A DNA stretch of 52,961 nt from an uncultured Thermoplasmatales archaeon (GCA_964473335.1 CAYYOO010000002.1:1-52961); one strand, 5' to 3'. Counted from the stretch's first letter, positions 1-16,430 are shown. Numbers and translations are program-made. Notes: generated from the letters alone by a model not told the origin.

Positions 1-51
1 ACATATGGGACTGTGGATCCTCTGTGGCGGGTTCAAATCCCGCCGCGGGCC
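1..51 (+). tRNA. tRNA-His(GUG), 3' portion; the 5' end lies upstream of the window
   Basis: Anticodon arm tggga/CTGTGGA/tcctc at 6-22 has a canonical 7-nt loop C-U-GUG-G-A. T arm gcggg/ttcaaat/cccgc is at 27-43 and the acceptor 3' strand cgcgggc at 44-50. The discriminator at 51 is C, as expected for prokaryotic tRNA-His. No CCA is encoded. Confidence 0.7.
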
Positions 52-55
52 TACT
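38..55 (+). repeat. attL: 18-bp direct repeat tcccgccgcgggcctact overlapping the tRNA-His 3' end
   Basis: An exact copy is present at 11278-11295 (read directly). It covers the T-stem 3' strand, the acceptor strand and 4 nt downstream. Confidence 0.85.
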
Positions 56-119
56 GTGTAAAGGTAAAAGGCCCGTAACCTTTATTTACCAACTAAATAT
101 TACACTATTAGGGGTTTTT

Positions 120-1394
120 ATGAAAAAAGGTTACACAGGCCGTGTTTTAGAAACTGGTTTAAACTACTTGAATAAAAGCAGGATTGATAAAAAAAATAAA
201 CAAACCATTAAAGATTTTGTAAATTCACTTTCAGCAGAAGGAATAACCCAAGACCGTCAATGTAAATATATCTATACACTTGTTAAAATTTCAAGAAAGA
301 TAAATAATAAAGATTTTTCAAAGCTTGCAAAAACAGATATTGAAAAATTAATAGGTAAACTAAACAATGAGGATCTTTCAGAATGGACCAAAAGAGATTA
401 TAGAATAGTAACTAAAAGATTAATGAGGTACATTAGAAACAAAGAAATTGAAGAATACAACAAAACACATAAGAAAAAAAAGAAATTATTTGGAAAAAAA
501 GAATATCCAAATGAAGTAAATTGGCTTTCTTCAACTATCAAAAAGAAAGATAAAAGAAAATACAAAAAAGAAATTCTAAAACCCGATGATATAAAAGAAC
601 TTGCTGAAGCAACATTCAATCTTAGAGATAAAGCATTTATTCTTTTTCTATATGAAAGCGGTGCAAGAATTGGCGAAGTAATGAATATGAGAATTAGGGA
701 TTTTAAACCTGAAGAAGCCTGGGCCAATGCAACACTTTTTGGAAAAACAGGTGAAAGAACTATTACTATTATTTCTTCAGCACCCGCAATAAACAACTGG
801 ATAAAACACCATCCAACTAGAGATAACGAAAATAGTTATCTATTCTGTTCTTTAAATCATTCAACTAAAGGCGATTTGAATAGTTATTCATATTTTAATA
901 AACTAATTAAAGAAGCAGCTAAACGTGCTGGATGGATTGATAAAAACGGGAATATTACAAGAGCTGTTAATCCACATCATTTTAGACATTCAAGAGCAAG
1001 TGAGCTTGCTAAAAAATTTACAGAAGCACATCTTTGTAATTACATGGGGTGGGAAATAGGATCTAAAGAAGCAGCAGATTATGTACATACAAGCAGAGAT
1101 GAAACAAATAATGCCTATAAAGTAATGCATGGGCTTGCAGTTGAAGAAGAAGAAAAAAACAAGTTTAAACCTATAGAATGCCCAAGATGTAATATTATGA
1201 ATGATCCTAGTGCAAAAAGGTGTATGGGCTGCGGTCAATTCTTAGATGACGAAAGCATAGACGAATATCTTAAACAAAAAGATGAAGCAACAGATATAGG
1301 ATTGTTATTGAAAAAATCAAAAAATAAAGATGAAATAAAAGAAATGTTAAGACCAATGCTTATAGAACTACTTAAAGAATCAGATAAAAAATAA
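120..1394 (+). CDS. Tyrosine recombinase/integrase with C-terminal zinc ribbon
   Basis: Start is the in-frame ATG at 120 (MKKGYTGR); the track ORF from 24 runs through the tRNA. Catalytic signature: ESGARIGE (Arg), GKTGERTI (Lys), HHFRHSRAS (His-x-x-Arg), GWEIGS and ADYVH (Tyr). It is followed by CPRC-x13-CMGC. Confidence 0.8.
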   Translation: MKKGYTGRVLETGLNYLNKSRIDKKNKQTIKDFVNSLSAEGITQDRQCKYIYTLVKISRKINNKDFSKLAKTDIEKLIGKLNNEDLSEWTKRDYRIVTKRLMRYIRNKEIEEYNKTHKKKKKLFGKKEYPNEVNWLSSTIKKKDKRKYKKEILKPDDIKELAEATFNLRDKAFILFLYESGARIGEVMNMRIRDFKPEEAWANATLFGKTGERTITIISSAPAINNWIKHHPTRDNENSYLFCSLNHSTKGDLNSYSYFNKLIKEAAKRAGWIDKNGNITRAVNPHHFRHSRASELAKKFTEAHLCNYMGWEIGSKEAADYVHTSRDETNNAYKVMHGLAVEEEEKNKFKPIECPRCNIMNDPSAKRCMGCGQFLDDESIDEYLKQKDEATDIGLLLKKSKNKDEIKEMLRPMLIELLKESDKK

Positions 1395-1419
1395 ATTTAA
1401 ATTTTTCAATATTTTTTCT

Positions 1420-2151
1420 TTATTTCACATTGAAATATTTGTTATATTCTTCGAAAAAATCATCAATCTTATATTCTTTTTTATATAATTTCTTTTTAAT
1501 TCCATCTAAATCAAGAGCTTCTTCATAGAATGTTAAAAAACCTGTATAAGTATAGGTTTTAAACAACTCTGAAACATAAGAATTAATTTTAGATAATTTA
1601 TAATGAACTCTAATATACTGTTTATCTAAGATTTTATCAGAAAATTGATCTATTGCTTGATTTACCAATACAATATTAAAAAAATTAATCCCCTCAAAGA
1701 TTCTTTCAAAAAAATCAATGTTTTTACTAAAATCATAATTTTTTATTGCATTTTCAATTAAATCTCTTGCGAGAAATAAACTTAAAATACTATCTAATTC
1801 CTTCATTTCTTCATTGTTAAATTTAATATTTTCTTTTTTCAATTTATCAAGAATAGCATTTTTCAAAGGATCTAATAATGAAAAATAATACTGTCTTTTT
1901 TCAGCATTACGACTAGAAAAATCCAATTTATCTTTATAGATATCCATCAAGTTATTTTCTTTGGCTATTTTACTATCAGCTTTTATAATCCATCCTTCTT
2001 TTTCTAATTTTTTTATTTCAGGATATATGCCTTTTTTTTTAGGATCTCCATATATCAGTTTAGAAATTTCCATTTTATAACGAGGCTTAGTATAACAAAG
2101 TAAATAGATTTTTTTTCCTAAATTATGAATTTTATCATTGTTTTTCTTCAT
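1420..2151 (-). CDS. Hypothetical protein, possible N-terminal winged-helix
   Basis: 243-aa ORF divergent from the RHH gene. The N-terminal segment ISKLIYGDPKKKGIYPEIKKLEKEGWI resembles a wHTH recognition region. No other motif was recognised. Confidence 0.35.
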   Translation of the reverse strand: MKKNNDKIHNLGKKIYLLCYTKPRYKMEISKLIYGDPKKKGIYPEIKKLEKEGWIIKADSKIAKENNLMDIYKDKLDFSSRNAEKRQYYFSLLDPLKNAILDKLKKENIKFNNEEMKELDSILSLFLARDLIENAIKNYDFSKNIDFFERIFEGINFFNIVLVNQAIDQFSDKILDKQYIRVHYKLSKINSYVSELFKTYTYTGFLTFYEEALDLDGIKKKLYKKEYKIDDFFEEYNKYFNVK

Positions 2152-2164
2152 ATAAACACCTTTG

Positions 2165-2216
2165 AACGTAAGATAAAAGCTTTTTAACTTACGGTAAGGT
2201 AAATTAAACTTACCTT
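2165..2216. promoter_or_regulatory. Candidate operator in a divergent promoter: four GTAAG/CTTAC half-sites
   Basis: gtaag at 2168-2172, cttac at 2188-2192, gtaag at 2194-2198, cttac at 2209-2213. This includes a 7-bp inverted repeat aaggtaa/ttacctt (2196-2202 / 2210-2216). The region lies between divergent genes 1420-2151(-) and 2258-2416(+). Confidence 0.35.
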
Positions 2217-2257
2217 TAGCTCATCTTAATATATTAGGGTATATATATACTTTAGTG

Positions 2258-2416
2258 ATGGCGAATAAACAGTCTAATATTAAAACACCGAAATGTGTAA
2301 CACTAGATCAAAACACAATAAAAAAATGTGAAAAATATGCAGAAGAACATGCTTTGAGTGTATCTGCTGTTATTAGATTTGTATTAAATGAATTTTTTAA
2401 TGGGGTGAATCAATAG
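2258..2416 (+). CDS. Ribbon-helix-helix (CopG/Arc-like) DNA-binding protein, 52 aa (absent from the ORF track)
   Basis: Translation is MANKQSNIKTPKCVTLDQNTIKKCEKYAEEHALSVSAVIRFVLNEFFNGVNQ. It shows the beta-strand (VTLD) then helix-helix pattern typical of RHH proteins. Confidence 0.55.
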   Translation: MANKQSNIKTPKCVTLDQNTIKKCEKYAEEHALSVSAVIRFVLNEFFNGVNQ

Positions 2417-2580
2417 TGGAAAACTCCAATAATTCTTCTAAAAAAAATTATGATTCAATGACTTTTGAAGAACTCCTGTCTTTAGCTAAAAAAAGAGGTT
2501 TGATATGACAGAATTTAGACTTTTCATATTTCACAACTCCTGTGCCCAAATCCGTGATAAAAAAATAAGAGGTGCAGGAA

Positions 2581-2748
2581 ATGAAAGAAAAAAACTACAG
2601 TACATACTTAAAAATCGAATGTAGAGGTATCACAACCTTGCGGTTGTTAAAAGCATTGCAAAACCTCCGCAACGGAGGGTTAACTGAATTTAAATTTGAA
2701 AAAGAAAAGGACAAGGATTTATATGGAAAAGGTAAAAATTGTTTATGA
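2581..2748 (+). CDS. Hypothetical small protein, 55 aa (absent from the ORF track)
   Basis: The ATG is preceded by GAGGTG 7 nt upstream. Translation is MKEKNYSTYLKIECRGITTLRLLKALQNLRNGGLTEFKFEKEKDKDLYGKGKNCL. It overlaps the next ORF. Confidence 0.35.
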   Translation: MKEKNYSTYLKIECRGITTLRLLKALQNLRNGGLTEFKFEKEKDKDLYGKGKNCL

Positions 2749-2899
2749 AGATGGGGATCAGGTTAGAGCTGTAACAGGTTTTTTACTTAATGAAGATCAG
2801 AATTTTATTAGTATACAACTTGAAAACACGAAACTTAGAATACATCTTAACCATATTTTTAAAATCGAACATCTAACAGGAGGAAAAAATGTCAGATAA
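2723..2899 (+). CDS. Hypothetical small protein, 58 aa
   Basis: In-frame ATG inside track ORF 2696..2899 (MEKVKIVYEDGDQVRAV...). No family was recognised. Confidence 0.35.
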   Translation: MEKVKIVYEDGDQVRAVTGFLLNEDQNFISIQLENTKLRIHLNHIFKIEHLTGGKNVR

Positions 2900-3161
2900 A
2901 CAATTCAAACAAGTACATACAACGATACCAAAAAAATACTGGGAATATGCAAAAAATAAAAAACTAAGCTGGAGTGAATTACTGATTTTTGCAATAGAAC
3001 ACCAAATGAATACAGATCCAGCTATAATAAAAGAAAAACTAAACAAGAACCATGAAGAAAGACAAATACTACAAGACCAACTGAAAAAAGCAGAAAAAAC
3101 ACACCAGGTGAAAAAAACCAAAGTAAAAGATCTACATAAGGGGTTGATACCTGTTGACTAA
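2889..3161 (+). CDS. Hypothetical protein, possible RHH-like N-terminus
   Basis: GGAGGA lies upstream of the ATG. VHTTIPKKYWEYAKNKKLSWSELLIFAIE resembles the RHH strand-helix-helix. The C-terminus is charged and coiled. The gene overlaps the MCM start. Confidence 0.4.
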   Translation: MSDKQFKQVHTTIPKKYWEYAKNKKLSWSELLIFAIEHQMNTDPAIIKEKLNKNHEERQILQDQLKKAEKTHQVKKTKVKDLHKGLIPVD

Positions 3162-5085
3162 AATCTTACCAGATAATGAAACCATAGGTCAATGGGAGCA
3201 ACTACTAACAGATAAAAACTATTTGAAACCAGAATTAGAAACCGCAAGAATAGAAAATATTTTTAAATTTGAATTTGAAAAAGTAGACAAAACAAACCCT
3301 GAACTAGGAGAATTACTTTTAGAAAATCCAATAAAAGCAATAGGTAACTTACGATATGCATTAGAGAATCAGGGCCTAAAAAAATATCAAATAGATATTA
3401 CAGGTCTTCAAGATATAAACCAAAAAAATATTGCAAATCTAAAAACCAATGATCTAAACAAACTCTTATCAATTGAGGGAATAGTATTACAAGCAACAAG
3501 TGTAAACCCTAGATTAACTCTAGGGGCTTTTCAATGCCTAAAATGTGGAGCAATCATAAGAGTATCGCAAGACATAATAAATAATGATAAAATAAAACTT
3601 CCAAATGAATGCTATGCAGATCAAGGCGGATGTGGAAGGGTATCTAATTTTAATCTTTTACCACATCTATCAAAATATATAGATTTTCAAAAACTATTAA
3701 TTACAAATCCATACTATGAACCACACCGAAGGGAACTAGAGATACATTGCTACAAAAACCATTGCAATAAAGTATTACCAGGTGAAACAATAACAATAAA
3801 CGGCCAATACTGCATAAACCAGGATATAAAGAAACTAACACAGGATACATATTTTTATACCTATGGTTTTGAAAGTGCACAATCAAAAAACCTTATTTTT
3901 AATGAAGAAGAACTAAAAAAAGCTAAGAAACTTGCACAATCAAAAAAACTATGGACCACACTAATAAACAGTTTTGCACCATCTATATATGGATATGTAC
4001 CACAAAAAGAAGCAATGCTTCTTCAACAGATAAGCGGTAACTGGCATAATATACAAGATGGAACTACAAGAAGGGGAAGCATACATATACTTCTAGTAGG
4101 TGATCCAGGAACAGTAAAAAGTACACTCATGCAAGCAAGTGCAAGAATTGCACCAATATTTACAAAAGCAAGTGGAAGGGGTGCAACAGTTGCAGGAGTT
4201 ACTGCTGGAGCTGTAAAAGATCCTTTAGGGGATGGATGGATATTACAAGCGGGTGCACTTGTAAGGGCTAATAATGGAACCTGTTTTCTTGATGAATTTG
4301 ATAAACTTCCAAAAGAAGTACAAGGTTGTTTACATGGGCCAATGGAGCAAGGAGTTGTAGAGCAAAGCAAAATGGGAAGTGTAAACCAAAGTCTTGCAGC
4401 AAGAACAGGCGTAACTGCAAGTATGAACCCTAAAATGGGGCGTTTTGATTCATTTGAAAAATATATAAATCAAATAGATATAGAACCAGCACTCCTTAGC
4501 CGTTTTGACTTGATTTTTGCGGTAACTGATACAACAGATAAAGAAACAGATTCTAAAATAGTGGACCATATACACCAAACAATATATGAAGAAAATAAAA
4601 AATCTAATAATTCTTCAATTCTTGAACCTGATTTTTTAAGAAAATATATACACTATGCAAAAAAAATAAAACCTAAGATACCACAAGAAATAAACAACAA
4701 AATCAAAGAATGGTTTATTGAAAAAAGAACTATCGAAGACTATCATATTAATTTTAGACATTATGAAGCAATTAGAAGACTAACAGAGGCAAGTGCAAAA
4801 ACAAGACTTGCAAAAACTGCAAATGAAAAAGATGCAAAAAGAGCACTTGAACTATTTGAATATAGTCTTGATACACTAGGAGTAAAAGATATTGATTCAA
4901 TAACTACTGGAATATCTACAAAGGAAAAAACTATACTTTATTCTGTTAAACTTATACTTCCAACAAACTGGAATGATATTCTTGCACAAGGATATAAAGA
5001 AGAAGACATACAGGCATTGATTGACAAAGAGTTTCTTTTTGAGGGAAAAGACCAAAGAATACATTTTAGGGGTGAAAATCAATGA
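3154..5085 (+). CDS. mcm: MCM-family replicative helicase (mobile-element copy)
   Basis: 643 aa with a TTG start per the track. Zn finger CLKCG...CGRV, Walker A LLVGDPGTVKST, Walker B CFLDEFDKL, arginine-finger region SRFDLIF, and a C-terminal wHTH-like tail. Confidence 0.85.
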   Translation: MTKILPDNETIGQWEQLLTDKNYLKPELETARIENIFKFEFEKVDKTNPELGELLLENPIKAIGNLRYALENQGLKKYQIDITGLQDINQKNIANLKTNDLNKLLSIEGIVLQATSVNPRLTLGAFQCLKCGAIIRVSQDIINNDKIKLPNECYADQGGCGRVSNFNLLPHLSKYIDFQKLLITNPYYEPHRRELEIHCYKNHCNKVLPGETITINGQYCINQDIKKLTQDTYFYTYGFESAQSKNLIFNEEELKKAKKLAQSKKLWTTLINSFAPSIYGYVPQKEAMLLQQISGNWHNIQDGTTRRGSIHILLVGDPGTVKSTLMQASARIAPIFTKASGRGATVAGVTAGAVKDPLGDGWILQAGALVRANNGTCFLDEFDKLPKEVQGCLHGPMEQGVVEQSKMGSVNQSLAARTGVTASMNPKMGRFDSFEKYINQIDIEPALLSRFDLIFAVTDTTDKETDSKIVDHIHQTIYEENKKSNNSSILEPDFLRKYIHYAKKIKPKIPQEINNKIKEWFIEKRTIEDYHINFRHYEAIRRLTEASAKTRLAKTANEKDAKRALELFEYSLDTLGVKDIDSITTGISTKEKTILYSVKLILPTNWNDILAQGYKEEDIQALIDKEFLFEGKDQRIHFRGENQ

Positions 5086-5240
5086 ATTTTAATGTACATT
5101 GCATGTATAATGTACACTATAATGTACATTCAAATGTACATACTCCTTATAGGGTGTTTTTATTAAAACTTAGAAATATAAGCCCTACTCTACTCTCTAC
5201 TCTTTCAATGTTCATGTACTGTACATGTACATTACTACAT
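5086..5240. repeat. Iteron-like cluster of AATGTACA/TGTACA motifs (candidate origin or MCM loading region)
   Basis: AATGTACA occurs at 5091, 5109, 5121 and 5133 (spacing 18, 12, 12). Overlapping ATGTAC/TGTACA/ATGTACA cores lie at 5214-5231. TACTC occurs three times at about 5185-5203. The cluster begins 6 nt after the MCM stop. Confidence 0.5.
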
Positions 5241-5277
5241 ATACATACAATATTTTCTAAATTTTGGAGGGATTTTT

Positions 5278-5529
5278 TTGAATTTGGGTACTAATCAGCT
5301 TTTGCTTTTGAAACGTTGTTTGTATAGCAAAAAAAAGTTTATCACAGATCGTGATGTTAAGTTAGTCTATGGTTTTAAAGATAAAAATAAGAGAAAATTA
5401 GTTTTTGAAAAACTTGAGATTAAAGGGCTTATGTTTTGTATGGATCGTAAACGTTGGAAGCTTACATATTATGGTAAACAGGTTGTTAGGGATAAACTCA
5501 GATCTATTCATAATGGGGTGAGTAGTTGA
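5278..5529 (+). CDS. Hypothetical protein, 83 aa
   Basis: TTG start preceded by GGAGGG. Basic small protein with no motif recognised. Confidence 0.35.
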   Translation: MNLGTNQLLLLKRCLYSKKKFITDRDVKLVYGFKDKNKRKLVFEKLEIKGLMFCMDRKRWKLTYYGKQVVRDKLRSIHNGVSS

Positions 5530-5569
5530 AGGTTTTGGGTTATATAAATTTTTTAAGGAGGTTTATTGA

Positions 5570-5803
5570 ATGAAAAAGAATTTAATTTTACCACAAAGTG
5601 TTTCTTTAGACGATGCAATAAAAAATATGTTATTGTTTGATAATGATCTACATGAGAGAGCAGTTAAATGTAAATACAGAACTAAATATCATTATTGTAC
5701 TCTTAAGAAAAAAGATGTTCATTTGTTGAATCATTGTATTGATTGTGAGTTTTTACCAGATAGTGATTTGGATATCGAATTTGTTTCTTTGGAGGTTGAT
5801 TAA
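5570..5803 (+). CDS. Hypothetical Cys/His-containing small protein
   Basis: 77-aa ORF preceded by AAGGAGG. Contains HYC...HC-x2-C. Confidence 0.4.
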   Translation: MKKNLILPQSVSLDDAIKNMLLFDNDLHERAVKCKYRTKYHYCTLKKKDVHLLNHCIDCEFLPDSDLDIEFVSLEVD

Positions 5804-5806
5804 TTT

Positions 5807-6118
5807 TTGACTAGAGTTTTTAGTGTAAGAATCAGTAAAGAGCTATTTGATAAAATAAACTCTGAAATTAAAGAATTGGGTATTTCACGCAGAGAATGGT
5901 TAACAAGTCTATATAATTCAAAAAATACACAAAAAAAACACGTATACAGTAGCGTATACAAACAAAAAAGGTGTAGCACTATGAATGAGTTGCATAGTTT
6001 TTGCGATAGCTTAAAACCGTCTAATTTTAAAGATTCTAGTATTTCTGATAATAAAGAGGATATCAGAGAGATTCTAAAAAATATTAAAACGGTTTCTGGG
6101 AGGTACAAAAAAAGTTGA
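5807..6118 (+). CDS. Hypothetical protein with RHH-like N-terminus
   Basis: FSVRISKELFDKINSEIKELGISRREWLTSL fits the CopG-type strand-helix-helix pattern. Confidence 0.4.
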   Translation: MTRVFSVRISKELFDKINSEIKELGISRREWLTSLYNSKNTQKKHVYSSVYKQKRCSTMNELHSFCDSLKPSNFKDSSISDNKEDIREILKNIKTVSGRYKKS

Positions 6119-6300
6119 GATCTACAGAGGAAAAAATAGGTCTTATGAAAAACCGTATCAATGTTCTAGGTTATCAGATAGAGAAACGAAAAAATGAGAT
6201 TAAAAAACTAAAAATAGAGATATCTAGGCTTAGGGAAAAACAAAAAAAAGAATCTAAAGAAAAATTTAGAGAGAGATTGTTATGTATATGGGATATCTAA
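6115..6300 (+). CDS. Hypothetical coiled-coil protein
   Basis: 61-aa highly charged heptad-like sequence. It overlaps both neighbours by a few nt. Confidence 0.3.
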   Translation: MRSTEEKIGLMKNRINVLGYQIEKRKNEIKKLKIEISRLREKQKKESKEKFRERLLCIWDI

Positions 6301-6647
6301 AAAACAATAACGGTGGTGGTATTACTCCAATATCTGTGTTGATTATTATAGTGGTTTTTGTGGTTTGTGTTTTTATTATTGTTACAGGTTTTATGCCACA
6401 TAAACCATCATGTAATCCTGAGGATCAAAAAAAACTGAGGGGTATTCTTAGGGGTTTTTATGAAAACAGTAGTTATTATTCTGTGGTTGTTGGTAATCAA
6501 TCTTATGTTTTTTGTTATGTTCTTTCTGAATCTTATCTTAATCAGTTTATAGGAGAAAAAGTTGAAATAACTTATTGTAGGAATGTTAATAGTTTACGTG
6601 ATGTAAAGGTTTGTTTTGATATGGTTGGTTGTGTTATTGTAGAGTAA
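6282..6647 (+). CDS. Hypothetical membrane protein
   Basis: Single N-terminal TM segment (ITPISVLIIIVVFVVCVFIIVTGF). Confidence 0.4.
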   Translation: MYMGYLKNNNGGGITPISVLIIIVVFVVCVFIIVTGFMPHKPSCNPEDQKKLRGILRGFYENSSYYSVVVGNQSYVFCYVLSESYLNQFIGEKVEITYCRNVNSLRDVKVCFDMVGCVIVE

Positions 6648-6742
6648 AAAAAAACATTATTTTTTTTGAAGAAGTTTTACGTATGTTTGCATTTTTGTTT
6701 TTGGTTATTTATCTGTTGAAGTTTTTATATCTTGCATATTTG

Positions 6743-6770
6743 GTGTTATTGCTCAGGGGGATAGAGAGAG
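6743..6770 (+). repeat. 28-bp direct repeat, copy 1 (gtgttattgctcagggggatagagagag)
   Basis: Exact match to 6912-6939, read directly. Confidence 0.85.
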
Positions 6771-6911
6771 TAAATATTAACTATAGTTTTATTTTGAGGG
6801 GGGTGATCTTAGTTAAAAAATGTTGTAAATGTTGGTTTTAAATGGTTTTTAAATGTTTTATAATTTTTATAATAAATGTTAGAGTTGTTTGTTTTATTTG
6901 TTTTTGATGTT

Positions 6912-6939
6912 GTGTTATTGCTCAGGGGGATAGAGAGAG
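6912..6939 (+). repeat. 28-bp direct repeat, copy 2
   Basis: Exact match to 6743-6770, offset 169 bp. Confidence 0.85.
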
Positions 6940-6971
6940 ATTATATATTTTTTATTTTTGTTAGGTTTTTT

Positions 6972-6989
6972 TGTAGGTATTGTAGGTAT
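6972..6989 (+). repeat. Tandem 9-mer tgtaggtat x2
   Basis: Read directly at 6972-6980 and 6981-6989. Confidence 0.8.
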
Positions 6990-7109
6990 TTTTCAATAGT
7001 TGTTTTTTAGATATAGGTTTGTTAATTTTGTTTAGTTATATTGTAAGATTGTAGCTATATGTGAGAGTAGGAAATGGTATATACAAAAAAATTTTTGTGT
7101 TATTTTTTT

Positions 7110-7195
7110 GTATCATATTTGATATAAACAATTGTTAATACCATATTTGTTATAAACATTTGTTATGTTTTTGTTATCATATATGATATTAAACA
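7110..7195. repeat. Short-repeat and palindrome cluster
   Basis: tttgttat occurs at 7146, 7159 and 7170. A 14-bp perfect palindrome tatcatatatgata lies at 7175-7188. A related copy tatcatatttgatata lies at 7111-7126. Confidence 0.6.
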
Positions 7196-7743
7196 GGAGG
7201 GATAATGTAGTAAGCTTGTTATTTGATGCTGAATCAAGACTTGGGGAAATACTAGATAACCGTGTTCATCAACAAGAACACGGCAATGATGGAAAGTTTG
7301 AAGAAAAATTACCTAAAGGATTAGATAGAAAACAATCACACTATGCACAAGAACTCAAGATGGATGTACCTTGTATTATCCGTAAAGATCTAAAAGAAGA
7401 ATGGCAGATAGAAGAACAACTCATATCTGATAATTTACTAAGAAGACACCTAAGTGACTACCAAAAAGTAGAATGTGATGATAAATTAAAAAACATCGAA
7501 GACATAAAAGCAAAACTAAGAAAATTATCAACTTTAAAAAGAGGAGATAAACTCCCCGATACCCAAAATTTTGGGGAACGGGACAATAATAAACATTCAG
7601 GGGAATCATTACAAAAACGTGCTAAAAAACTAGGGACAAACAGAGAAACACTCAGACAAGCACGGAAAATATACCACGAAGCACCAGAACCAATCAAAAA
7701 AGAATGGCAACAGAAAAACAATAATGGTGGTGATGCACAATAA
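7165..7743 (+). CDS. Hypothetical protein, 192 aa (start uncertain)
   Basis: Long charged ORF with no family recognised. The predicted start lies inside the repeat cluster. Confidence 0.4.
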   Translation: MFLLSYMILNRRDNVVSLLFDAESRLGEILDNRVHQQEHGNDGKFEEKLPKGLDRKQSHYAQELKMDVPCIIRKDLKEEWQIEEQLISDNLLRRHLSDYQKVECDDKLKNIEDIKAKLRKLSTLKRGDKLPDTQNFGERDNNKHSGESLQKRAKKLGTNRETLRQARKIYHEAPEPIKKEWQQKNNNGGDAQ

Positions 7744-7748
7744 AACAA
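7714..7748 (+). repeat. 35-bp direct repeat, copy 1 (covers the 3' end and stop of ORF 7165-7743)
   Basis: aaaaacaataatggtggtgatgcacaataaaacaa. It matches 7947-7981 with one mismatch (7723 a versus 7956 g). Confidence 0.85.
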
Positions 7749-7946
7749 AATAATTGGAGTCTAAAAAACAAAGGATTATCCAGTTATCCCAATGGGAAAC
7801 CTGTAGAGATATACCCAAAACATATCATTGAAACACTCCATCAGAAATTGAAAGATGATATATTAACTATATTTGATGAGATGTGCGGCAGAGATAAACT
7901 CGAAATTATCAATTCTCTTTTAAACTGTATCGACCAACGATTCGGT

Positions 7947-7981
7947 AAAAACAATGATGGTGGTGATGCACAATAAAACAA
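7947..7981 (+). repeat. 35-bp direct repeat, copy 2
   Basis: Offset 233 bp from copy 1. It again ends an open frame with ...GGDAQ-stop. Confidence 0.85.
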
Positions 7982-8087
7982 CAATGTTCCCAAAACCGTT
8001 TTTCTTTAAATACTATTTCTTCCCAAATTGTAAATATTTGTGTTTTGGGAAGAAAAGGTATATATATTTATGGAGGGGTGGGAAGAA

Positions 8088-8279
8088 ATGCATTTTGAAG
8101 AACGAAAAAATTATGTACGTTTTCGTAAAGACCTAAAAGATAAAAACGGAAAGTGGTATCAAAAAACAATTTTTAAAATCCCGAAACTACCAAATGGGAA
8201 ATGGGCACCCTTACACTTTCCTTTTATATATCAGGGAAGCTCAAACATACTAATAGAAAACATAAAAAAAAATGTATAG
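8088..8279 (+). CDS. Hypothetical small protein, 63 aa
   Basis: In-frame ATG preceded by GGAGGGGTGGG (MHFEERKNYVRF...). Confidence 0.4.
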   Translation: MHFEERKNYVRFRKDLKDKNGKWYQKTIFKIPKLPNGKWAPLHFPFIYQGSSNILIENIKKNV

Positions 8280-8347
8280 TTTTGACAACTTAACACTCTA
8301 GGAAGGTGTGTGATAGTAACCAATTTTTTTTTTATTTCAACTTATCT

Positions 8348-8719
8348 TTATATTAAATCAGTTGCAGAACCCACAGGATCTAATTCTGATATGTTTAAAA
8401 AATTCAATAATTCAAAGTAACAATCCAAGCAAATATAACAACAATTGTAATGTGGTTCTACAAAAGTCATTTTATGTTCAATTGGTTCTAATATTTCTTC
8501 AAATTTTAAAATATCTTTTTCAGGTGTACTCTTAGGAAGTTTCATTTCTATTATATCCATATTTCCATCCTTACAATTAAGACCTATAGTTCTTGCTTCA
8601 GGATATTCTGCTTTTTTACCGCATCTTTGGCATATATGATTATATCTAGCTTTTTCAAATGTTTTTTTTAAGTTTTTTTCTCTTTCTCTTGCGTTTTTAT
8701 CTAAAGTGTTCGTTTTCAT
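8348..8719 (-). CDS. Hypothetical Cys-rich (zinc-ribbon-like) protein, 123 aa
   Basis: Contains CQRCG...C and CCYICLDC motifs. Its start codon directly abuts the stop of the upstream RHH gene. Confidence 0.45.
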   Translation of the reverse strand: MKTNTLDKNAREREKNLKKTFEKARYNHICQRCGKKAEYPEARTIGLNCKDGNMDIIEMKLPKSTPEKDILKFEEILEPIEHKMTFVEPHYNCCYICLDCYFELLNFLNISELDPVGSATDLI

Positions 8720-8875
8720 TTATTTCACCTTATCCTTATTTTTAAAATAGAATTTCATCATATGTCTAAACTGATCGCTAGGCCCTCTTGTTTCTTCTTT
8801 CTGTAGTTTGTCAAATAGTTTTTTTTCTTCTTTTGTTAATGATATTGTTACATTTGGCATTCTTTTCATAATCAT
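8720..8875 (-). CDS. RHH (CopG-like) small protein, 51 aa (absent from the ORF track)
   Basis: Translation is MIMKRMPNVTISLTKEEKKLFDKLQKEETRGPSDQFRHMMKFYFKNKDKVK, with the VTISL strand plus two helices. The TAA stop is immediately followed by the ATG of 8348-8719. Confidence 0.5.
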   Translation of the reverse strand: MIMKRMPNVTISLTKEEKKLFDKLQKEETRGPSDQFRHMMKFYFKNKDKVK

Positions 8876-8983
8876 ACACCGTATATTTAATATTTTTATT
8901 GCCTTTTATTGTTTTCGCAATAATTTTAAATAGTGGTTTATTGTTTAGATAATTTAAAAAAATGGATAGGTGAAAAAGAAATT

Positions 8984-9163
8984 ATGTATGAAGAAAAAAA
9001 TATAGAAAATATAAAAGCAGATGATCTAAAAAGAGAGCTACCTGTAAACATGGATTTTGAAACAACACTACCCGTTGAAGTAATACAAAAACTAGGTCTT
9101 AAATCAGATGACAACCTAGTATTCATAGAGGAAAACAACCGTATCTATATAGAGAAAGCATAA
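8984..9163 (+). CDS. AbrB/SpoVT/MazE-like small DNA-binding protein
   Basis: In-frame ATG with GGTGA 10 nt upstream. LPVEVIQKLGLKSDDNLVFIEENNRIYIEK resembles the swapped-hairpin AbrB fold signature. Confidence 0.45.
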   Translation: MYEEKNIENIKADDLKRELPVNMDFETTLPVEVIQKLGLKSDDNLVFIEENNRIYIEKA

Positions 9164-9183
9164 AAAAAAAAGAGGGATAATTT

Positions 9184-9339
9184 ATGAATGATACCAGTAT
9201 TTTGAAACAACTAGAGTTCCCAGATGTTTATATAAAACAAGTTGAAAATGTTGTAAATGATCCAGATCTGTTTTTTGATGATATGAAAGAGTTCCTTCGT
9301 AACGCTGTTAGGGATTATTATAACAGAATGAAAAACTAA
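9184..9339 (+). CDS. Hypothetical small protein, 51 aa (absent from the ORF track)
   Basis: The ATG is preceded by AGAGGGA. Translation is MNDTSILKQLEFPDVYIKQVENVVNDPDLFFDDMKEFLRNAVRDYYNRMKN. Confidence 0.3.
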   Translation: MNDTSILKQLEFPDVYIKQVENVVNDPDLFFDDMKEFLRNAVRDYYNRMKN

Positions 9340-9423
9340 AAAAAACATATTTCTCTTATTTTTTCTTTAGTCATGTTACGAGTTTTACGTAACATTTAAG
9401 TATTTACTAATCATTATTAGATC

Positions 9424-9888
9424 ATGACAAAACTTAGCCCTCAGGAAATAAACTATTTACGCAACCCAGAATATTTTAAACCAGGTTATCAAAGGGTATT
9501 ATCACACAGAATAAATAAAAAAGTTAGTAATAGTAAGAAACTGTTAAATTATGTTGATAAACACGAAAGAGCAATGGTTACGCAAGGAAAAAGGCAAGAA
9601 TATGATAAGGAAACAGCATACTTGAAAAAATTAAAAGAGGAGGCAAAGAACAGAGCAATAACTGTATTTACACCTAGTGTAAGGCAAAGAGCAAGACAAA
9701 TTGAAAGAGATTTATACTCTCTATCAAACAAGATCAATAGGTTTTCAAATGTTTTAAAAAATCACGATATGACAATATCTCAAAAGAAAAAAGCAAGGCT
9801 TTATGTTAAACAATTAAAAAATCAAATTGATAAACAGTTTGTCGAACTCGATGCAGTATTCAAGGCTGAAAACGAATTAATTGAGTGA
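9424..9888 (+). CDS. Hypothetical basic protein, 154 aa
   Basis: ORF with a coiled, Lys/Arg-rich sequence. No family recognised. Confidence 0.4.
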   Translation: MTKLSPQEINYLRNPEYFKPGYQRVLSHRINKKVSNSKKLLNYVDKHERAMVTQGKRQEYDKETAYLKKLKEEAKNRAITVFTPSVRQRARQIERDLYSLSNKINRFSNVLKNHDMTISQKKKARLYVKQLKNQIDKQFVELDAVFKAENELIE

Positions 9889-10096
9889 TTTTTTTTCTTT
9901 TTTACGTTAAAGTACATTTTTATACATTTACTCCTTAACAAAGTTGGCTTAAAACGGTTTCTGTGCATGAAACATAGGGGGTTTTGTGAAAGAAAAACAG
10001 GGTTTTTTAAACTATCTATTTACAGGGGGGAAATACCGATTATTTGTAAATATCTCTCGAAACCTTTAAGTATATTGAATTATATAAATATATATA

Positions 10097-10384
10097 ATGC
10101 TAAAATCTGAGAGAAAACAAAAAACCTATGGGAAAAAAATACATTACCCACAACTAGATACGATACTAATGGTAGAAGAAAAAATACAGGAAATGGATTA
10201 TCCAAAAAAAACAGAACTATGGAGAGCACTACCAAAAAAAGTAATGTATCAAACATTTAACCTTATAATTGATTATCTCGAAAAATCAGGGAAAATATTA
10301 ATCGATGATGATGCTAGAATAGTATGGATCTGGAATCCAGATTTAATGAAAAAAGTTATTTCCTCTGGAGTTAAATTCAAATGA
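10097..10384 (+). CDS. Putative antitoxin or wHTH-like partner of the downstream toxin
   Basis: 95 aa. It overlaps the next gene by 4 nt (ATGA), the typical type II TA architecture. Confidence 0.4.
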   Translation: MLKSERKQKTYGKKIHYPQLDTILMVEEKIQEMDYPKKTELWRALPKKVMYQTFNLIIDYLEKSGKILIDDDARIVWIWNPDLMKKVISSGVKFK

Positions 10385-10719
10385 ATAACTGTAAGATTGA
10401 AGTTGTTTTTGTAGATAAAAAACTTCAAAGGGATTTTGAAAAACTTAAACATGGGAAAACAGAAGATAGAGAACTATATGATTTTATAGATAGAGCTACA
10501 GATGATTTAAAAGAAAAACCTATGTGTGGTATTAAGATACCACGAAAGTTGTGGCCAAAAGGGTATATTAAAAAATATGGTATTGATAATCTTTGGAAAT
10601 ATGATTTACCTAATGCTTGGCGTTTGATCTATACGATTGTAGGCGATGAAGTTAAAATTTTGAATGTACTTCTTGAATGGTTATCTCATAAGGATTATGA
10701 AAAGAGATTCAGGTATTAA
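10381..10719 (+). CDS. RelE/ParE-superfamily-like toxin
   Basis: The C-terminal pattern LWKYDLPNAWRLIYTIVGDEVKILNVLLEWLSHKDYEKRF matches the RelE/ParE consensus shape (hydrophobic-R-hydrophobic-I-Y ... I-L ... H-x-x-x-Y). Confidence 0.5.
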   Translation: MNNCKIEVVFVDKKLQRDFEKLKHGKTEDRELYDFIDRATDDLKEKPMCGIKIPRKLWPKGYIKKYGIDNLWKYDLPNAWRLIYTIVGDEVKILNVLLEWLSHKDYEKRFRY

Positions 10720-11032
10720 TCTTTGTTTTTGGTTTGATATGGTACTTATTATTAATGTTGATAATTTGTATTAGAAAAACCAATAGAATAGTATGATTAT
10801 TACTGATATGTTATGAATAGTACCAAAAAACAGGGTGAAACAACATTTTATTTTTATCTAGGGTTTATTTAAAAACCCCTGTTAGCCAAAACATAATGAC
10901 TTGAGGGGTTTAACATTCAGCAATATACACGTATTTAGTTACAAATGTTCCAAAAACAAAAATAACATAACTCTGCTATTTTTTCTATATTAATTTAAAT
11001 ATCTCTAGATTATACAAAAAAAGGATTAGAAA

Positions 11033-11173
11033 ATGATTGAGATTGATAAAGATAAATATCCTAGTGCATATCGTCTTTTAAAAGAAACAGGTATGACATT
11101 AGATCAAGCTTTAATTTATACAGAATCAGAGCTTGAAAAACTTGAAACAAACAAAAAAACCAGCAAAAATTAA
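11033..11173 (+). CDS. Hypothetical small protein, 46 aa, next to attR (absent from the ORF track)
   Basis: Translation is MIEIDKDKYPSAYRLLKETGMTLDQALIYTESELEKLETNKKTSKN, preceded by AAGGA. Function unknown. The antisense track ORF 11061..11243 is less plausible. Confidence 0.25.
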   Translation: MIEIDKDKYPSAYRLLKETGMTLDQALIYTESELEKLETNKKTSKN

Positions 11174-11277
11174 GGTTTTTAAATATATAAAAATCATGCC
11201 TATAATAATAAGCTCTCCTTAGAGCGGTTTTTCGTAAAAACACTAAAATAAAAGGGCCTTTTACTTTTGTAAGTAAC

Positions 11278-11295
11278 TCCCGCCGCGGGCCTACT
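11278..11295 (+). repeat. attR: second copy of the 18-bp tRNA-His 3'-end repeat
   Basis: tcccgccgcgggcctact, identical to 38-55. Confidence 0.85.
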
Positions 11296-11446
11296 TTTAA
11301 AGATAATCATTTTCATATATTAAAAAATATTATAAAAAAATTTTTAAACAAGTATACAATGAATAAAACTCAAGAATTACTTGAGGAAAAGTTTTAATAT
11401 GCTTAATTTATTAAAAAACATTAGATATTTAACTTAGGGGGTAAAA

Positions 11447-13414
11447 ATGTATAAGAAAATTTTTTGCGTAATAGCATTGTCAATGCTTGTCTTATCAGGT
11501 ATAAACGTTTTTGGAACTAATTTAAAAGAAAAAGAAACCAAACAAATGATTTATTCTCAGAAATCAATAGAAATGGAGTTTACTTTTTCATATCCCGAAA
11601 TCTATGAACAATATAACTACTCAGTGATCAAAATTAATGAAACAAATCATAATAGAATAAAGATGTTTGATTATGACACAAATTATCCGGTTCTACCTGT
11701 TAATCTAACTGTTTTTAAATTTAATTTTGGTACAAAAATACTGAATATGAGCTATAAAACATCTGAACCTGAAATAATAAAACTTGATTCATTACCTTCT
11801 TTTGGTAGATCTCAATTTGATAGTATTAATTATAGAACTTATCAGAAATTTGATAGTAAAAATTTATATGAAAATCTAGGCGATTACCCAGAAAAATGTG
11901 TATCATTTCATACAGGTGGCGGTTTAGACTATAAAAATAGAGTAAGCTATCTTGTTTTACAAGTATACCCCGTAAAATATTTGCCAAATAATAACGAGAT
12001 CTCTTTTTCTTCTATTATTAAGGTAAATATTACCTATGAAGAACCAGAAGAATCAATTATAGATGTTGAAAATAAACAAGATCTATTGATTATTGCGCCA
12101 AATGAGTATACAGATACATTAACAAAGCTTGTTGATTTTAAAAACAGTAAGGGCGTAAAAACTAAGATGTTCTCTACTGAAGAAATTTACAATGAAAAAC
12201 TTTTAAGAGGAAGAGATGAACAGGAAAAAATCAAGTATTTTATAAAGGGAGCAATAGAAAAATGGGATATCACACATGTTTTACTTGTTGGCGGTATAGA
12301 TGGACAGAACGATAAATGGCATATTCCTATTAGATATAGCTATGTTGTTCCACCTGAAGAACAAGAATTCCCTGAAGAACGTTTTGTAAGTGATCTTTAT
12401 TATGCAGATATTTATGACTCTGAAGGTGCTTTTTCAAGCTGGGATTCAAATGATGATAATAAATTCTCTGTTTGGAATGAAACCTACAAAGAAGAAATGG
12501 ATCTGTATCCTGATGTATATCTCGGGAGATTACCATGCAGGAACAGATTTCAAGTAAGAACAATGGTTAGAAAAATAATAAATTATGAAAAAAATAATGT
12601 AAAATCAGAAGGATGGTTTGATAACCTTTTGTTGGTTGGTGGTGATTCTTATCATAATGATGGTCAATGGCCTCCTGGAGAAGTCGTTATAGAAGGAGAA
12701 ATAGCTTGTGATAAGGCTTTAGAACTGATGCCTGGTTTTAATCCACTTAAGGTTTATTCATCAAATGAAGATATTAATGGAAAGACTGTAAACGAAGAGT
12801 TCAACAAAGGAGCAGGTTTTGCATATATATGTGGTCATGGAAGTAGGGTTTCATGGAGTACGCATTTCCCAGATCCAATAGATGAAAAAGACAACTGGAC
12901 AACTGGATACAGGGTACAGGATATGCCCCTTTTAAGAAATAGAGATAAACTACCTGTAGCAGTTATTGGCGGATGCCATAACGGAGAATTTGATAAAAGT
13001 ATACTTCAAAATATTATAAACGGTGTAGGTAGAGGCGGTCTAAAATATCTATATAATAGATTTTTATATGATGGATGGGTGCCAAAGTGTTGGGCATGGT
13101 GGCTCACTAGTAAACCAAATGGTGGTACAATTGCAACAATTGCAAACACGGGCTTAGGAACTCATGGTGATGGCGATCAAGATCTTAATGGCGTGATAGA
13201 TTATCTAGAAATACTTGATGGCTATCTTGAATTGAGATTTTTAGAGTTATATGGTATGGAAGATGAAGATGATCTTGGACTAAACCACGGGCAAACTATG
13301 GCTGAATATCTACATGAATTTTTAGATGATAATTCCAAAATGGATGTAAAAATGGTACAGCAATGGGAATTATTTGGAGATCCTAGTTTAAAAATAGGTG
13401 GATATAAAAAATAA
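11447..13414 (+). CDS. Secreted peptidase C25 (gingipain)-like cysteine protease
   Basis: N-terminal signal/TM segment. C25-like blocks: LLIIAPNEY...VLLVGG...IP, SDLYYADIYD, YLGRLPCRN...MVRKIINYE, catalytic-type His in YICGHGS and Cys in VIGGCHNG. Confidence 0.65.
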   Translation: MYKKIFCVIALSMLVLSGINVFGTNLKEKETKQMIYSQKSIEMEFTFSYPEIYEQYNYSVIKINETNHNRIKMFDYDTNYPVLPVNLTVFKFNFGTKILNMSYKTSEPEIIKLDSLPSFGRSQFDSINYRTYQKFDSKNLYENLGDYPEKCVSFHTGGGLDYKNRVSYLVLQVYPVKYLPNNNEISFSSIIKVNITYEEPEESIIDVENKQDLLIIAPNEYTDTLTKLVDFKNSKGVKTKMFSTEEIYNEKLLRGRDEQEKIKYFIKGAIEKWDITHVLLVGGIDGQNDKWHIPIRYSYVVPPEEQEFPEERFVSDLYYADIYDSEGAFSSWDSNDDNKFSVWNETYKEEMDLYPDVYLGRLPCRNRFQVRTMVRKIINYEKNNVKSEGWFDNLLLVGGDSYHNDGQWPPGEVVIEGEIACDKALELMPGFNPLKVYSSNEDINGKTVNEEFNKGAGFAYICGHGSRVSWSTHFPDPIDEKDNWTTGYRVQDMPLLRNRDKLPVAVIGGCHNGEFDKSILQNIINGVGRGGLKYLYNRFLYDGWVPKCWAWWLTSKPNGGTIATIANTGLGTHGDGDQDLNGVIDYLEILDGYLELRFLELYGMEDEDDLGLNHGQTMAEYLHEFLDDNSKMDVKMVQQWELFGDPSLKIGGYKK

Positions 13415-13432
13415 AAAAAATTATTTTTTTTA

Positions 13433-13930
13433 TTAAAACGGTAATCCACTGTATAAACTATTTGTAAGGCCAATTGTGGTGCCAGTAAATATTGCAGTTA
13501 TTACTATGTATCCGCCAATAAGGATTAATCCTAGTCTAATGTATTTATCTAGTTTGGTATTTAAAAAGCCTCCACCAAACATCATTACTCCTGCACCAAG
13601 AAGACCAAAGGTAGTAAGAAAGTTACCGATAGTATCATATGCTGAATGTTGAATTATCAAGCTACCAATCCATGAGATCAAAATACCTACTAAAAATCCA
13701 AGCATTACAAAAATTTTTGAAAATATGGTATCTACAAATCCTTCAAGACTAGTTCCACCCATTTTTTGTGCTGGACGTGTTTGATAGGTCTGTCTTTGAG
13801 GTGGTGCCTGAGGTTGAGCTCTTGGTTGAGGTGGTGCTTGTGGTTGAGTTGGTTTTACAGCCCCACAACCCGGGCAAAAAGATGCATCATCAGGAATATC
13901 AGCTCCACATTTATTACATTTAACAGTCAT
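13433..13930 (-). CDS. Zinc-ribbon membrane protein with Pro/Gln-rich linker
   Basis: CNKCG-x11-CPGCG at the N-terminus, a PQAPPQPRAQPQAPPQ linker, then three to four TM helices. Confidence 0.6.
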   Translation of the reverse strand: MTVKCNKCGADIPDDASFCPGCGAVKPTQPQAPPQPRAQPQAPPQRQTYQTRPAQKMGGTSLEGFVDTIFSKIFVMLGFLVGILISWIGSLIIQHSAYDTIGNFLTTFGLLGAGVMMFGGGFLNTKLDKYIRLGLILIGGYIVITAIFTGTTIGLTNSLYSGLPF

Positions 13931-14006
13931 ATTTTTTCCTCCCTACTAATTGATTTGAAATAAAAAACATGTTATATATTCCTTTCTTTTTAATTAAAAA
14001 TCAGTT

Positions 14007-14138
14007 TTATCTTTTACATATCTTGCAAACCCTAGAATGATGATCAAAACAATTATTACAAACCAATCTTCCACAAAACATGCATGAATGCATAGCTCCA
14101 GGTTTTTTACATATTGAACATAAACCTGTCATTTCCAT
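14007..14138 (-). CDS. Small zinc-finger protein, 43 aa (absent from the ORF track)
   Basis: Translation is MEMTGLCSICKKPGAMHSCMFCGRLVCNNCFDHHSRVCKICKR, with eight Cys plus His. The ATG lies 4 nt after the stop of the upstream HTH gene. Confidence 0.5.
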   Translation of the reverse strand: MEMTGLCSICKKPGAMHSCMFCGRLVCNNCFDHHSRVCKICKR

Positions 14139-14142
14139 AGTT

Positions 14143-14844: not shown

Positions 14845-15257
14845 TTTTTTCCCCTCAATGGCTTAAATTTATAACCATAGTAAATTGCACCTGTGTATCC
14901 ATCTTCTTGAATACGTCTGAAGGTGCTTTCAACTTTCATTCCAATTTTAACTTCATCTATCTTGCAATCCACTATTTGAGCAGTTATCTTTGGTCCTTCA
15001 TCAAGCTTGATTATTGCAACAGGGTATGGTACTTGTTCTTCAAAAGCTTGTGGGCCAGCATGAACAATAGAATATGTTAATATTTTGCCTTTTCCACTCA
15101 GTTTTTCTTCTTTCATTTGCCCCATACTTTGCCTTCGGCAGTATGGACATGCCTCTCTAGGTGGGAAAAATGTTTTACCACATTTTCCGCATTTATTTGC
15201 CAATAGATTGTATCTCTGAGGTATTTCTCTCCAGAATCTTGCTACATCAGATTTCAT
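14841..15257 (-). CDS. DUF35 Zn-ribbon/OB-fold protein (scaffold of the archaeal thiolase-HMG-CoA synthase complex)
   Basis: CGKCGKTFFPPREACPYCRR followed by an OB-fold-like C-terminus. It has the conserved position downstream of the thiolase. Confidence 0.8.
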   Translation of the reverse strand: MKSDVARFWREIPQRYNLLANKCGKCGKTFFPPREACPYCRRQSMGQMKEEKLSGKGKILTYSIVHAGPQAFEEQVPYPVAIIKLDEGPKITAQIVDCKIDEVKIGMKVESTFRRIQEDGYTGAIYYGYKFKPLRGKK

Positions 15258-15259
15258 TA

Positions 15260-16426: not shown

Positions 16427-16430
16427 TTTA

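Follow-up and report, generated by a model that had tools for sequence, protein, structure and literature searches.

A probable MCM-encoding integrated plasmid-like element at the tRNA-His gene of an uncultured Thermoplasmatales archaeon

Results

Direct repeats of the tRNA-His 3' end around an 11.2-kb region

We analysed a 52,961-nt stretch of DNA from an uncultured Thermoplasmatales archaeon (GCA_964473335.1, CAYYOO010000002.1:1-52961; hereafter the window), which starts within a tRNA-His gene and directly afterwards holds an 11.2-kb region (56-11277) encoding a tyrosine integrase, an MCM helicase and a series of small proteins (Table 1). The region is bounded by the 18-mer TCCCGCCGCGGGCCTACT, of which the window contains exactly two copies, identical at 18 of 18 bases. 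This exact repeat inside the tRNA 3' end, pointed out in a preliminary description of the DNA, held up: no third copy with up to two mismatches was found in the window, and 100 dinucleotide-preserving shuffles yielded 0 matches. A degenerate third copy of the attachment (att) site farther downstream, which would put the adjacent gene for a C25 (gingipain-like) peptidase inside an older element, was not found either.

The window is the whole of one contig (G000:C2), and ARAGORN reported no tRNA-His on it because the contig starts inside the gene. The reverse complement of contig C28 ends with a complete tRNA-His(GTG), and its last 55 nt are identical to window positions 1-55. Read from the acceptor stem, the tRNA ends with C73 at window position 51, and the 18-mer therefore consists of the last 14 nt of the tRNA followed by TACT. 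The region is thus flanked by direct repeats identical to the tRNA 3' end, with the tRNA itself left intact, as predicted across C28 and C2. When the two ends are joined, the resulting attP has the 18-bp core between the arms GGGCCTTTTAC and GTAAAAGGCCC of a perfect 11-bp inverted repeat, which are likely candidates for integrase binding sites.

The tyrosine integrase lies beside the tRNA, as had been proposed, with its start codon 64 nt past the att core. The catalytic pattern R...HxxR...W...Y is present, in the motifs ARIGE (182), HHFRHS (286), MGW (309) and DYVH (320), so that an intact tyrosine recombinase (R, HxxR, H/W, Y) adjoins the att site. In addition to its Pfam match, the protein matched the NCBIfam XerA model NF040815 (6.5e-23, under the cut-off) and the XerA structures 4a8e and 5hxy in the PDB. 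Among virus records it was closest to the integrases encoded by Archaeoglobi pleomorphic viruses, with 31-32% identity across 88-94% of its length. In attP, an in-frame TAA (11270-11272) stands ahead of the core, and the gene is therefore not split by integration. An SSV-type ("suicidal", type I) integrase was considered and rejected, since attP lies outside the integrase gene and the gene is unsplit; judged from its sequence, the enzyme is of the lambda/pNOB8 (non-suicidal) type in the scheme of PMC8371274.

Table 1. Window coordinates of the features in and beside the region, with the evidence for each
Feature	Position	Strand	Evidence or remark
tRNA-His(GTG), 3' 51 nt	1-51	+	C28 overlap; 5' part on contig C28
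attL core (14 nt of tRNA 3' end + TACT)	38-55	+	exact 18-mer
Right arm GTAAAAGGCCC of perfect 11-bp inverted repeat	64-74	.	inverted-repeat search; sequence read
Tyrosine integrase, 424 aa, XerA/XerC-like, C-terminal CPRC...CxxC zinc ribbon	120-1394	+	PF00589 E=8.7e-18
243-aa protein, tail-to-tail with integrase	1420-2151	-	function not assigned by family searches
Small Arc/RHH-like (ribbon-helix-helix-like) regulator	2255-2416	+	DUF6364 4.8e-5, 24.2 bits against cut-off 27.3; PHROG transcriptional regulators 5e-4
Two overlapping small open reading frames (ORFs), upstream of replication block	2572-2748 and 2696-2899	+	ORF list
90-aa RHH-like protein with long coiled-coil helix	2889-3161	+	stop overlaps MCM start
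MCM helicase, 643 aa, element type	3154-5085	+	PF00493 E=8e-66; MCM_OB and MCM_lid domains
Putative replication origin	5086-5250	.	4-5 AATGTACA iterons, AT-rich spacer, then overlapping TGTACA palindromes
Five small ORFs (83, 77, 103, 61 and 121 aa; 121-aa one with hydrophobic segment)	5278-6647	+	tblastn against circle L082
G+T-rich stretch, apparently non-coding	6650-7160	.	GC skew about +0.5; 28-mer duplicated 169 nt apart; palindromes
ParB-like fragment	7165-7743	+	phrog_4715 1.3e-5
35-nt direct duplication, 97% identical	7714-7748 and 7947-7981		repeat search
N6/N4 DNA methylase N-terminal remnant	8040-8279	+	31% match to first 56 aa of methylase of relative L030
Two-gene cassette: 51-aa RHH-like and 123-aa Cys-rich proteins	8348-8875	-	RHH_1 0.067, DUF6290 0.018
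AbrB/MazE-like 76-aa protein	8933-9163	+	PF04014 4.8e-4, TIGR01439 3.8e-3, both below cut-off
51-aa ORF and 154-aa protein, 3' of AbrB-like gene	within 8933-9888	+	no family match
Toxin-antitoxin (TA)-like pair: 95-aa protein and 112-aa ParE/RelE-like protein (10381-10719)	10097-10719	+	4-nt overlap
43-nt TATA-box-like sequence TTTAAATATATAAAAATCATGCCTATAATAATAAGCTCTCCTT toward attR	11178-11220	+	exact match to contig C52 1670-1712
Left arm GGGCCTTTTAC of 11-bp inverted repeat	11254-11264	.	inverted-repeat search; sequence read
attR core	11278-11295	+	second exact copy of 18-mer

An RHH-like gene, an element-type MCM and a putative iteron origin

The MCM helicase reported in the interior of the region was borne out by the Pfam MCM, OB and lid domains. 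Its Walker A (GDPGTVKS), Walker B (LDEFDK), arginine finger (SRFDL) and zinc motifs were all found, and it is only 35% identical to the MCM of the host on contig C105. The mobile region therefore carries an MCM with intact ATPase motifs, distinct from the chromosomal copy. About 26 metagenomic relatives of roughly 640 aa were 43-78% identical to it, and the next matches were host-type MCMs of about 702 aa at 35-38% identity. We placed the protein in a maximum-likelihood tree, a check that had been suggested for it: element-type and chromosomal MCMs were split with 100/100 support by a stem of about 1.5 substitutions per site, and the host's own MCM fell in the chromosomal group. By this phylogeny, the element MCM belongs to a clade of its own and is no recent capture from the present host.

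The element type is rare: of the order's 117 other species genomes, only 3 have it. Neither the MCM nor TCCCGCCGCGGGCCTACT was found in IMG/VR, and a scan of GTDB genome contigs with the MCM gave only a 26%-identical match in Nanoarchaeota. No relatives of the element were present in phage records or in the literature searched; they are known only from metagenome contigs. The suggestion that the family is undescribed thus appears reasonable, though the MCM-encoding kind as such is well known.

Directly upstream of the MCM gene, and overlapping it, lies the gene for a 90-aa protein, orthologues of which (40-70% identity) occupy the same place in 9 of 9 related loci. The protein had no significant Pfam match. 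Its AlphaFold2 (AF2) model comprises helices at 15-23 and 28-41 and a long helix at 44-85 (predicted local distance difference test score, pLDDT, 72) and gave no significant fold match in the PDB. The predicted fold is compatible with a ribbon-helix-helix (RHH) dimer bearing a coiled-coil tail but is not diagnostic of it, and we use "RHH-like" in that sense.

The 165 nt after the MCM stop codon contain two clusters of repeats, and of the 7 TGTACA sites that the first 14 kb contain, 6 fall within this stretch (5086-5250). The two-cluster layout after the MCM stop is kept in all relatives, and the iteron unit itself varies by element, being GTACAT, GGACAT/GTCCAT or TACGTAT. The 90-aa protein of the one relative with TACGTAT also departs from the others in the strand that putatively reads DNA (LTTSIP versus VHTTIP); this parallel change of strand and iteron is a single case and only suggestive. 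DNA similarity to eight related loci is limited to window 2878-5283, that is, to the RHH-like gene, MCM and the repeats. From this arrangement we regard 5086-5250 as a putative origin, and the RHH-like protein is probably the origin-binding partner of MCM and the candidate reader of the iterons.

Absence from related species and forks in two assemblies

We compared the locus with four species of the host genus, three of which (G002, G003 and G004) have a syntenic tRNA-His locus. The DNA of 56-11277 is absent from all four, save for the TA-like cassette, which occurs at other loci. The genes left of tRNA-His (on C28) and those from window 14143 rightwards show protein-level synteny with the tRNA-His loci of the three species, and G004 additionally has the C28 flank genes on the opposite side of tRNA-His. 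In these congeners, the orthologue of 13433-13930 (G003) or 14143-14844 (G002 and G004) comes within 0.15-1.6 kb after tRNA-His, so the present genome has about 14 kb extra; the conserved downstream orthologues span up to window 14143-21667. Presence at the target site therefore differs between species, with G002, G003 and G004 lacking the element.

The gene for the C25 peptidase (11447-13414) comes just after attR, outside the repeats. It is missing from the congener tRNA-His locus and has counterparts of 66-74% identity on other contigs, near tRNA-Cys in G003 and G004. The sequence beyond tRNA-His differs in each of the species examined. The preliminary description had proposed to look for an empty site with tRNA-His joined directly to position 11296. 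The congeners do lack the element at the syntenic tRNA-His, but the tRNA is not joined to 11296 there. The full C25 peptidase protein and a guessed partial product, used to seek a Logan contig across attR/attB, retrieved no record.

The assembly itself bears on the left junction. At k=55, C28 and C2 share exactly bases 1-55, so that the graph forks immediately behind base 55, where the core ends. An independent Logan contig (SRR15425350, k=31) matches 26-9020 at 100% identity and stops at precisely base 26, placing the fork node at 26-55. Another Logan contig reproduces 9219-11207, again at 100% identity. A second element of the genome (described below) has an exact copy of a 43-nt sequence of the region, and this repeat accounts for the break at 11207 to the base, which supports reading the breaks as graph forks. 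An 18-nt repeat cannot cause a fork at k=55 or k=31; therefore the reads hold another sequence that shares the tRNA end and TACT and diverges at 56. Such a fork would result from an empty site, or from another insertion into this core, suggesting that some cells differ at the attL junction. Counting the contigs that carry element or host proteins in SRR15425350 and SRR15425351 gave no presence/absence signal, most host proteins also being on one contig. Weighing the forks and the circular contigs of relatives, as indirect signs, together with the observations discussed below, we consider it somewhat more likely than not that the element is still mobile and able to excise.

These data also bear on the idea that the block is ordinary chromosome, with a repeat that arose by coincidence or through a chimeric assembly. 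Such an error would be easier to imagine where the window starts inside a tRNA and the metagenome bin is fragmented, with 162 contigs and graph junctions of the 55-nt type at 113 of the 324 contig ends. The idea is nevertheless essentially refuted by the failure of shuffled sequences to reproduce the repeat, by the two exact Logan contigs, by the absence of the block from the syntenic site in congeners and by the integrase that adjoins the att core.

Circular relatives and a second element in the same genome

The closest relative, L081 (NCBI GCA_039908135.1, JAMOBG010000130.1), encodes an MCM of 74% and an RHH-like protein of 70% identity. Its 8,582-nt contig has identical 77-nt ends and closes to an 8,505-bp circle, upon which the MCM is intact over 643 aa. 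Also encoded on the circle are an integrase of its own, a 279-aa AAA-like ATPase (phrog_22963, 1e-27) and counterparts of two small regulators. L081 was deposited in a metagenome-assembled genome labelled Magnetococcus sp. YQC-3; with a GC content of 32.8% and an archaeal-type MCM, it was probably mis-binned there.

A 13.1-kb contig (L082, JGI 3300029267, Ga0310068_1009952; L083, ENA ERZ27256770) was recovered at least 10 times; its ends overlap by 141-144 nt and rotated copies occur, so it is also circular. It encodes a 782-aa PrimPol-D5 helicase in place of MCM, an integrase and about 20 small ORFs, and shares seven cargo genes with the element, including the 5278-6647 block (up to 85% identity) and the 8348-8875 pair. 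Judged by these shared genes, the element is a mosaic within a network of small circular plasmids. The PrimPol circle itself seems to represent a plasmid family of its own, within the same host lineage and apparently undescribed.

No tRNA adjoined the relatives in the fetched loci, and the only att-like candidate there was a weak 12-nt repeat in L030. Two further observations were made in these loci. In L031, the contig of a related element, a 290-aa protein encoded directly upstream of the integrase (1630-2502) matches phrog_6247 ("DNA topoisomerase", 2.8e-90), and its small gene may be a free-standing topoisomerase-like one carried by mobile elements. L079 (G076:C84) has at about 1318-1342 a solitary piece of a tRNA 3' end, GGGGTTCAAATCCCGATGCGGGCG; host-like genes fill the 7 kb between it and the integrase-MCM element of that genome, and it may be the att remnant of another element.

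The host genome contains a second element of about 18 kb on a chain of contigs, C113 (end)-C125-C75 (reverse)-C52 (reverse), inferred from 55-nt contig overlaps. Located at the end of C113, at a tRNA with a CAT anticodon and an intron, it has the 15-bp repeat ATCCCGCCCCCGACA at its ends and encodes a 466-aa integrase (39% identical to that of 120-1394), a ParB-like protein and homologues of 5278-5529 and 8720-8875. Here too, a contig break falls exactly at the end of the att core. The two elements share the 43-nt sequence TTTAAATATATAAAAATCATGCCTATAATAATAAGCTCTCCTT, located 57-58 nt upstream of the attR core in both, which from its TATA-box-like sequence may be an outward-facing archaeal promoter. 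Such a promoter would drive transcription over attP into the integrase gene when the element is a circle, and toward the C25 peptidase gene when it is integrated.

Virus and conjugation genes

Among 27 ORFs, none matched virion, packaging or conjugation families in Pfam, PHROGs or NCBIfam, which is negative evidence only; none were found in the related elements either. The earlier statement that nothing recognisable as a capsid, portal or terminase is present thus stands for Pfam and PHROGs. A head-tailed provirus (Caudoviricetes) was rejected, since no major capsid protein, portal or terminase was matched and the element is only 11.2 kb. Membership in the Pleolipoviridae was likewise rejected: only the integrase matches Geoglobus acetivorans pleomorphic virus 1 (GacPV1), no VP3-like or VP4-like protein was matched, no ORF has the size of a spike protein, and there were no PHROG hits.

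More generally, the region could be the provirus of a small undescribed archaeal virus, with virion proteins hidden among the small ORFs, for instance in 5278-6647 with its membrane protein. Most ORFs of the element have no assignment, the 5278-6647 block is kept across two replicon types as a morphogenesis module might be, and the integrase finds its best virus-record matches in Archaeoglobi pleomorphic viruses. The circular relative L081 also has an ATPase of a virus protein family (phrog_22963), but the window element lacks it, and the kinship with GacPV1 stops at the integrase, there being no VP3-like or VP4-like protein. The largest ORF besides integrase and MCM is 243 aa, neither the element nor its relatives gave structural matches in PHROGs or Pfam, and IMG/VR contains neither the MCM nor the att core. 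We therefore consider a provirus very unlikely.

The remaining genes

The 243-aa protein next to the integrase had no Pfam, PHROG or NCBIfam match. It has homologues of 47-58% identity, and the tail-to-tail arrangement with the integrase recurs in related elements, the 58% homologue holding this position on the 13.1-kb circular PrimPol plasmid. The AF2 model is all-helical, of low confidence (pLDDT 62), and without significant fold match in the PDB. Between this gene and the replication block, the regulator of 2255-2416 and the ORF 2572-2748 (44% identity) have homologues in the circle L081, and both 2572-2748 and 2696-2899 were also called as genes on the Logan contig.

None of the five ORFs of 5278-6647 matched a Pfam or PHROG family. 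By tblastn against the PrimPol circle L082, 5570-5803 was 85%, 5278-5529 39%, 6115-6300 47% and 6282-6647 40% identical. The G+T-rich stretch that follows had no Rfam match (in a search of 1-14200) and no DNA similarity in relatives. Farther right, the 35-nt duplication covers the stop codon of the ParB-like ORF, with a start-less coding-like segment between its copies, and the methylase piece stops before the DPPY catalytic motif of the L030 methylase. The two-gene cassette of 8348-8875 also occurs as a pair in the circular plasmid L082, at 55% and 31% identity.

At the right end, the ParE/RelE-like protein matched ParE_toxin (3.5e-4, 21.5 bits against a cut-off of 23) and YoeB (1.8e-3, 18.7 against 27), and the two-gene layout with its 4-nt overlap fits a type II toxin-antitoxin system. 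Copies of this cassette with 70-78% DNA identity lie elsewhere in five related genomes, and on that distribution the cassette is mobile among them. The preliminary description had counted at least four RHH regulators, an AbrB-like protein and TA-like pairs. Candidates for these exist, but all the matches are sub-threshold and the labels weaker than claimed: RHH_1 scored E=0.067 for 8720-8875 and E=0.15 for 5807-6118, and no RHH profile matched 2889-3161 or 9184-9339. No CRISPR-spacer-like matches to the element were found elsewhere in the genome.

Discussion

Taken together, the region 56-11277 is very probably an integrated plasmid-like mobile element, of the sort called a cryptic integrated element (CIE), and the proposal of an att-bounded MCM element inserted in the 3' end of tRNA-His is supported. 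It represents a new family of a known kind, the MCM-encoding archaeal integrated plasmids or cryptic integrated elements. In the scheme that we propose, the element's own unsplit tyrosine integrase would have catalysed the insertion, rebuilding an intact tRNA at attL and leaving a 14-nt tRNA fragment at attR. The circular form would replicate via a compact replicon of RHH-like protein, MCM and the iteron origin directly after MCM: the RHH-like protein would mark the origin via the iterons, MCM would be loaded there, and the element-type MCM would probably recruit the host replisome. The remaining genes would be exchangeable cargo, comprising small regulators, a TA-like addiction pair and decayed ParB/methylase remnants.

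Several observations weigh against this interpretation or parts of it. The GC content differs little, at 28.8% for the element and 30.6% for the genome. As the C25 gene lies elsewhere in the congeners, the original target site is not exactly reconstructed. The RHH, AbrB and ParE labels are all below the Pfam curated cut-offs. If attB and integrated forms were simply mixed, a fork would be expected at attR as well, and C2 runs through attR unbroken. An 18-mer scan of JGI metagenome contigs for an empty site or free form yielded 25 chance matches in contigs of 58-77% GC (high-GC bacteria) and none in tRNA-His. Finally, the ParB-like fragment, the methylase piece and the duplication look like decayed remnants, the scar of recombination or gene decay.

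The last three points are also what speaks for an immobilised remnant, that is, an element integrated in the same way that can now neither excise nor replicate and has become a fixed genomic island. Against such a fate, the att cores have stayed identical at all 18 bases, the integrase, RHH-like protein, MCM and iterons are all intact, and two assemblies fork exactly at the core boundary. A fixed island is thus unlikely, if less so than a provirus, and we retain the integrated plasmid-like element as our interpretation.

A broader picture can be drawn from the same comparisons. The element and its approximately 26 relatives would form an undescribed integrative plasmid family (8.5 to about 13 kb) of uncultured low-GC Thermoplasmatota-like archaea, recognised by a replicon of three parts (the 90-aa RHH-like protein, a divergent MCM and a two-cluster iteron origin), in which the RHH-like protein, not Orc1/Cdc6, selects the origin for MCM and the iteron specificity shifts per element. 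Integrases and cargo would be swapped with PrimPol plasmids, and the right-end promoter would switch the integrase on only in the circle. As one joint claim this is a serious possibility, which we advance tentatively.

To our knowledge, almost nothing is known of mobile elements in uncultured archaea of the sediment type, for which genetic tools are lacking. The replicon of about 2.4 kb (RHH-like gene, MCM and putative iteron origin), delimited by comparison, is a natural starting point for a shuttle vector, and it comes with a matched integrase and an att site of known tRNA target. It also offers a simple system for asking how an MCM helicase reaches an origin without Orc1/Cdc6. The small archaeal plasmids of this lineage appear mosaic, trading integrases, cargo and replication modules (MCM or PrimPol) with one another. 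What is generally understood of integrated elements in archaea is unchanged by the finding.

Several known systems invite comparison. The integrase of GacPV1 (BK065156, Pleolipoviridae) is 32% identical to that of the element over 398 aligned positions and shares its CPRC...CxxC zinc ribbon, and both genomes are small circles with the integrase beside the junction. However, GacPV1 has VP3-like and VP4-like genes and a rolling-circle Rep, whereas the element has none of these and carries MCM instead. The SNJ2-type modules of haloarchaeal pleolipoviruses resemble it in having a short core that equals the tRNA 3' end (14 bp in SNJ2 and 18 bp here) next to the integrase, and in the exchange of integration modules between unrelated elements (Wang et al. 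2018, PMC5861418); cores of such short length are usual where the target is a tRNA 3' end. Unlike them, the present element has no identified Orf2/Orf3-like accessory genes and no pleolipovirus structural genes.

Recruitment of MCM by archaeal viruses and plasmids is known (PMC6563490, citing Krupovic et al. 2010, Mol Biol Evol 27:2716). The MCM-encoding plasmids and proviruses of Euryarchaeota and Crenarchaeota mentioned in that account are alike in using as replication protein an MCM distinct from the host copy; here, the MCM is 35-37% identical to the host type and stands on a long stem branch, in its own clade of about 26 metagenomic sequences. The closest parallel in organisation is provided by the cryptic integrated elements, which are small and att-flanked, with an integrase, sometimes MCM, and otherwise unassigned genes (Krupovic et al. 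2019, PMC6563490). Those defined for Thaumarchaeota, such as the MCM-encoding NitGar-E6 and NitEve-E3, are likewise shorter than 20 kb and att-flanked by short direct repeats at a tRNA 3' end, with an integrase, MCM as the sole recognisable replication protein, RHH or winged helix-turn-helix (wHTH) regulators and no virus or conjugation hallmarks. They belong to another host phylum and have no sequence relationship to the present element beyond the hallmark genes, whereas here a fuller replicon (RHH-like gene, MCM and putative iteron origin) can be followed across relatives, including free circular ones.

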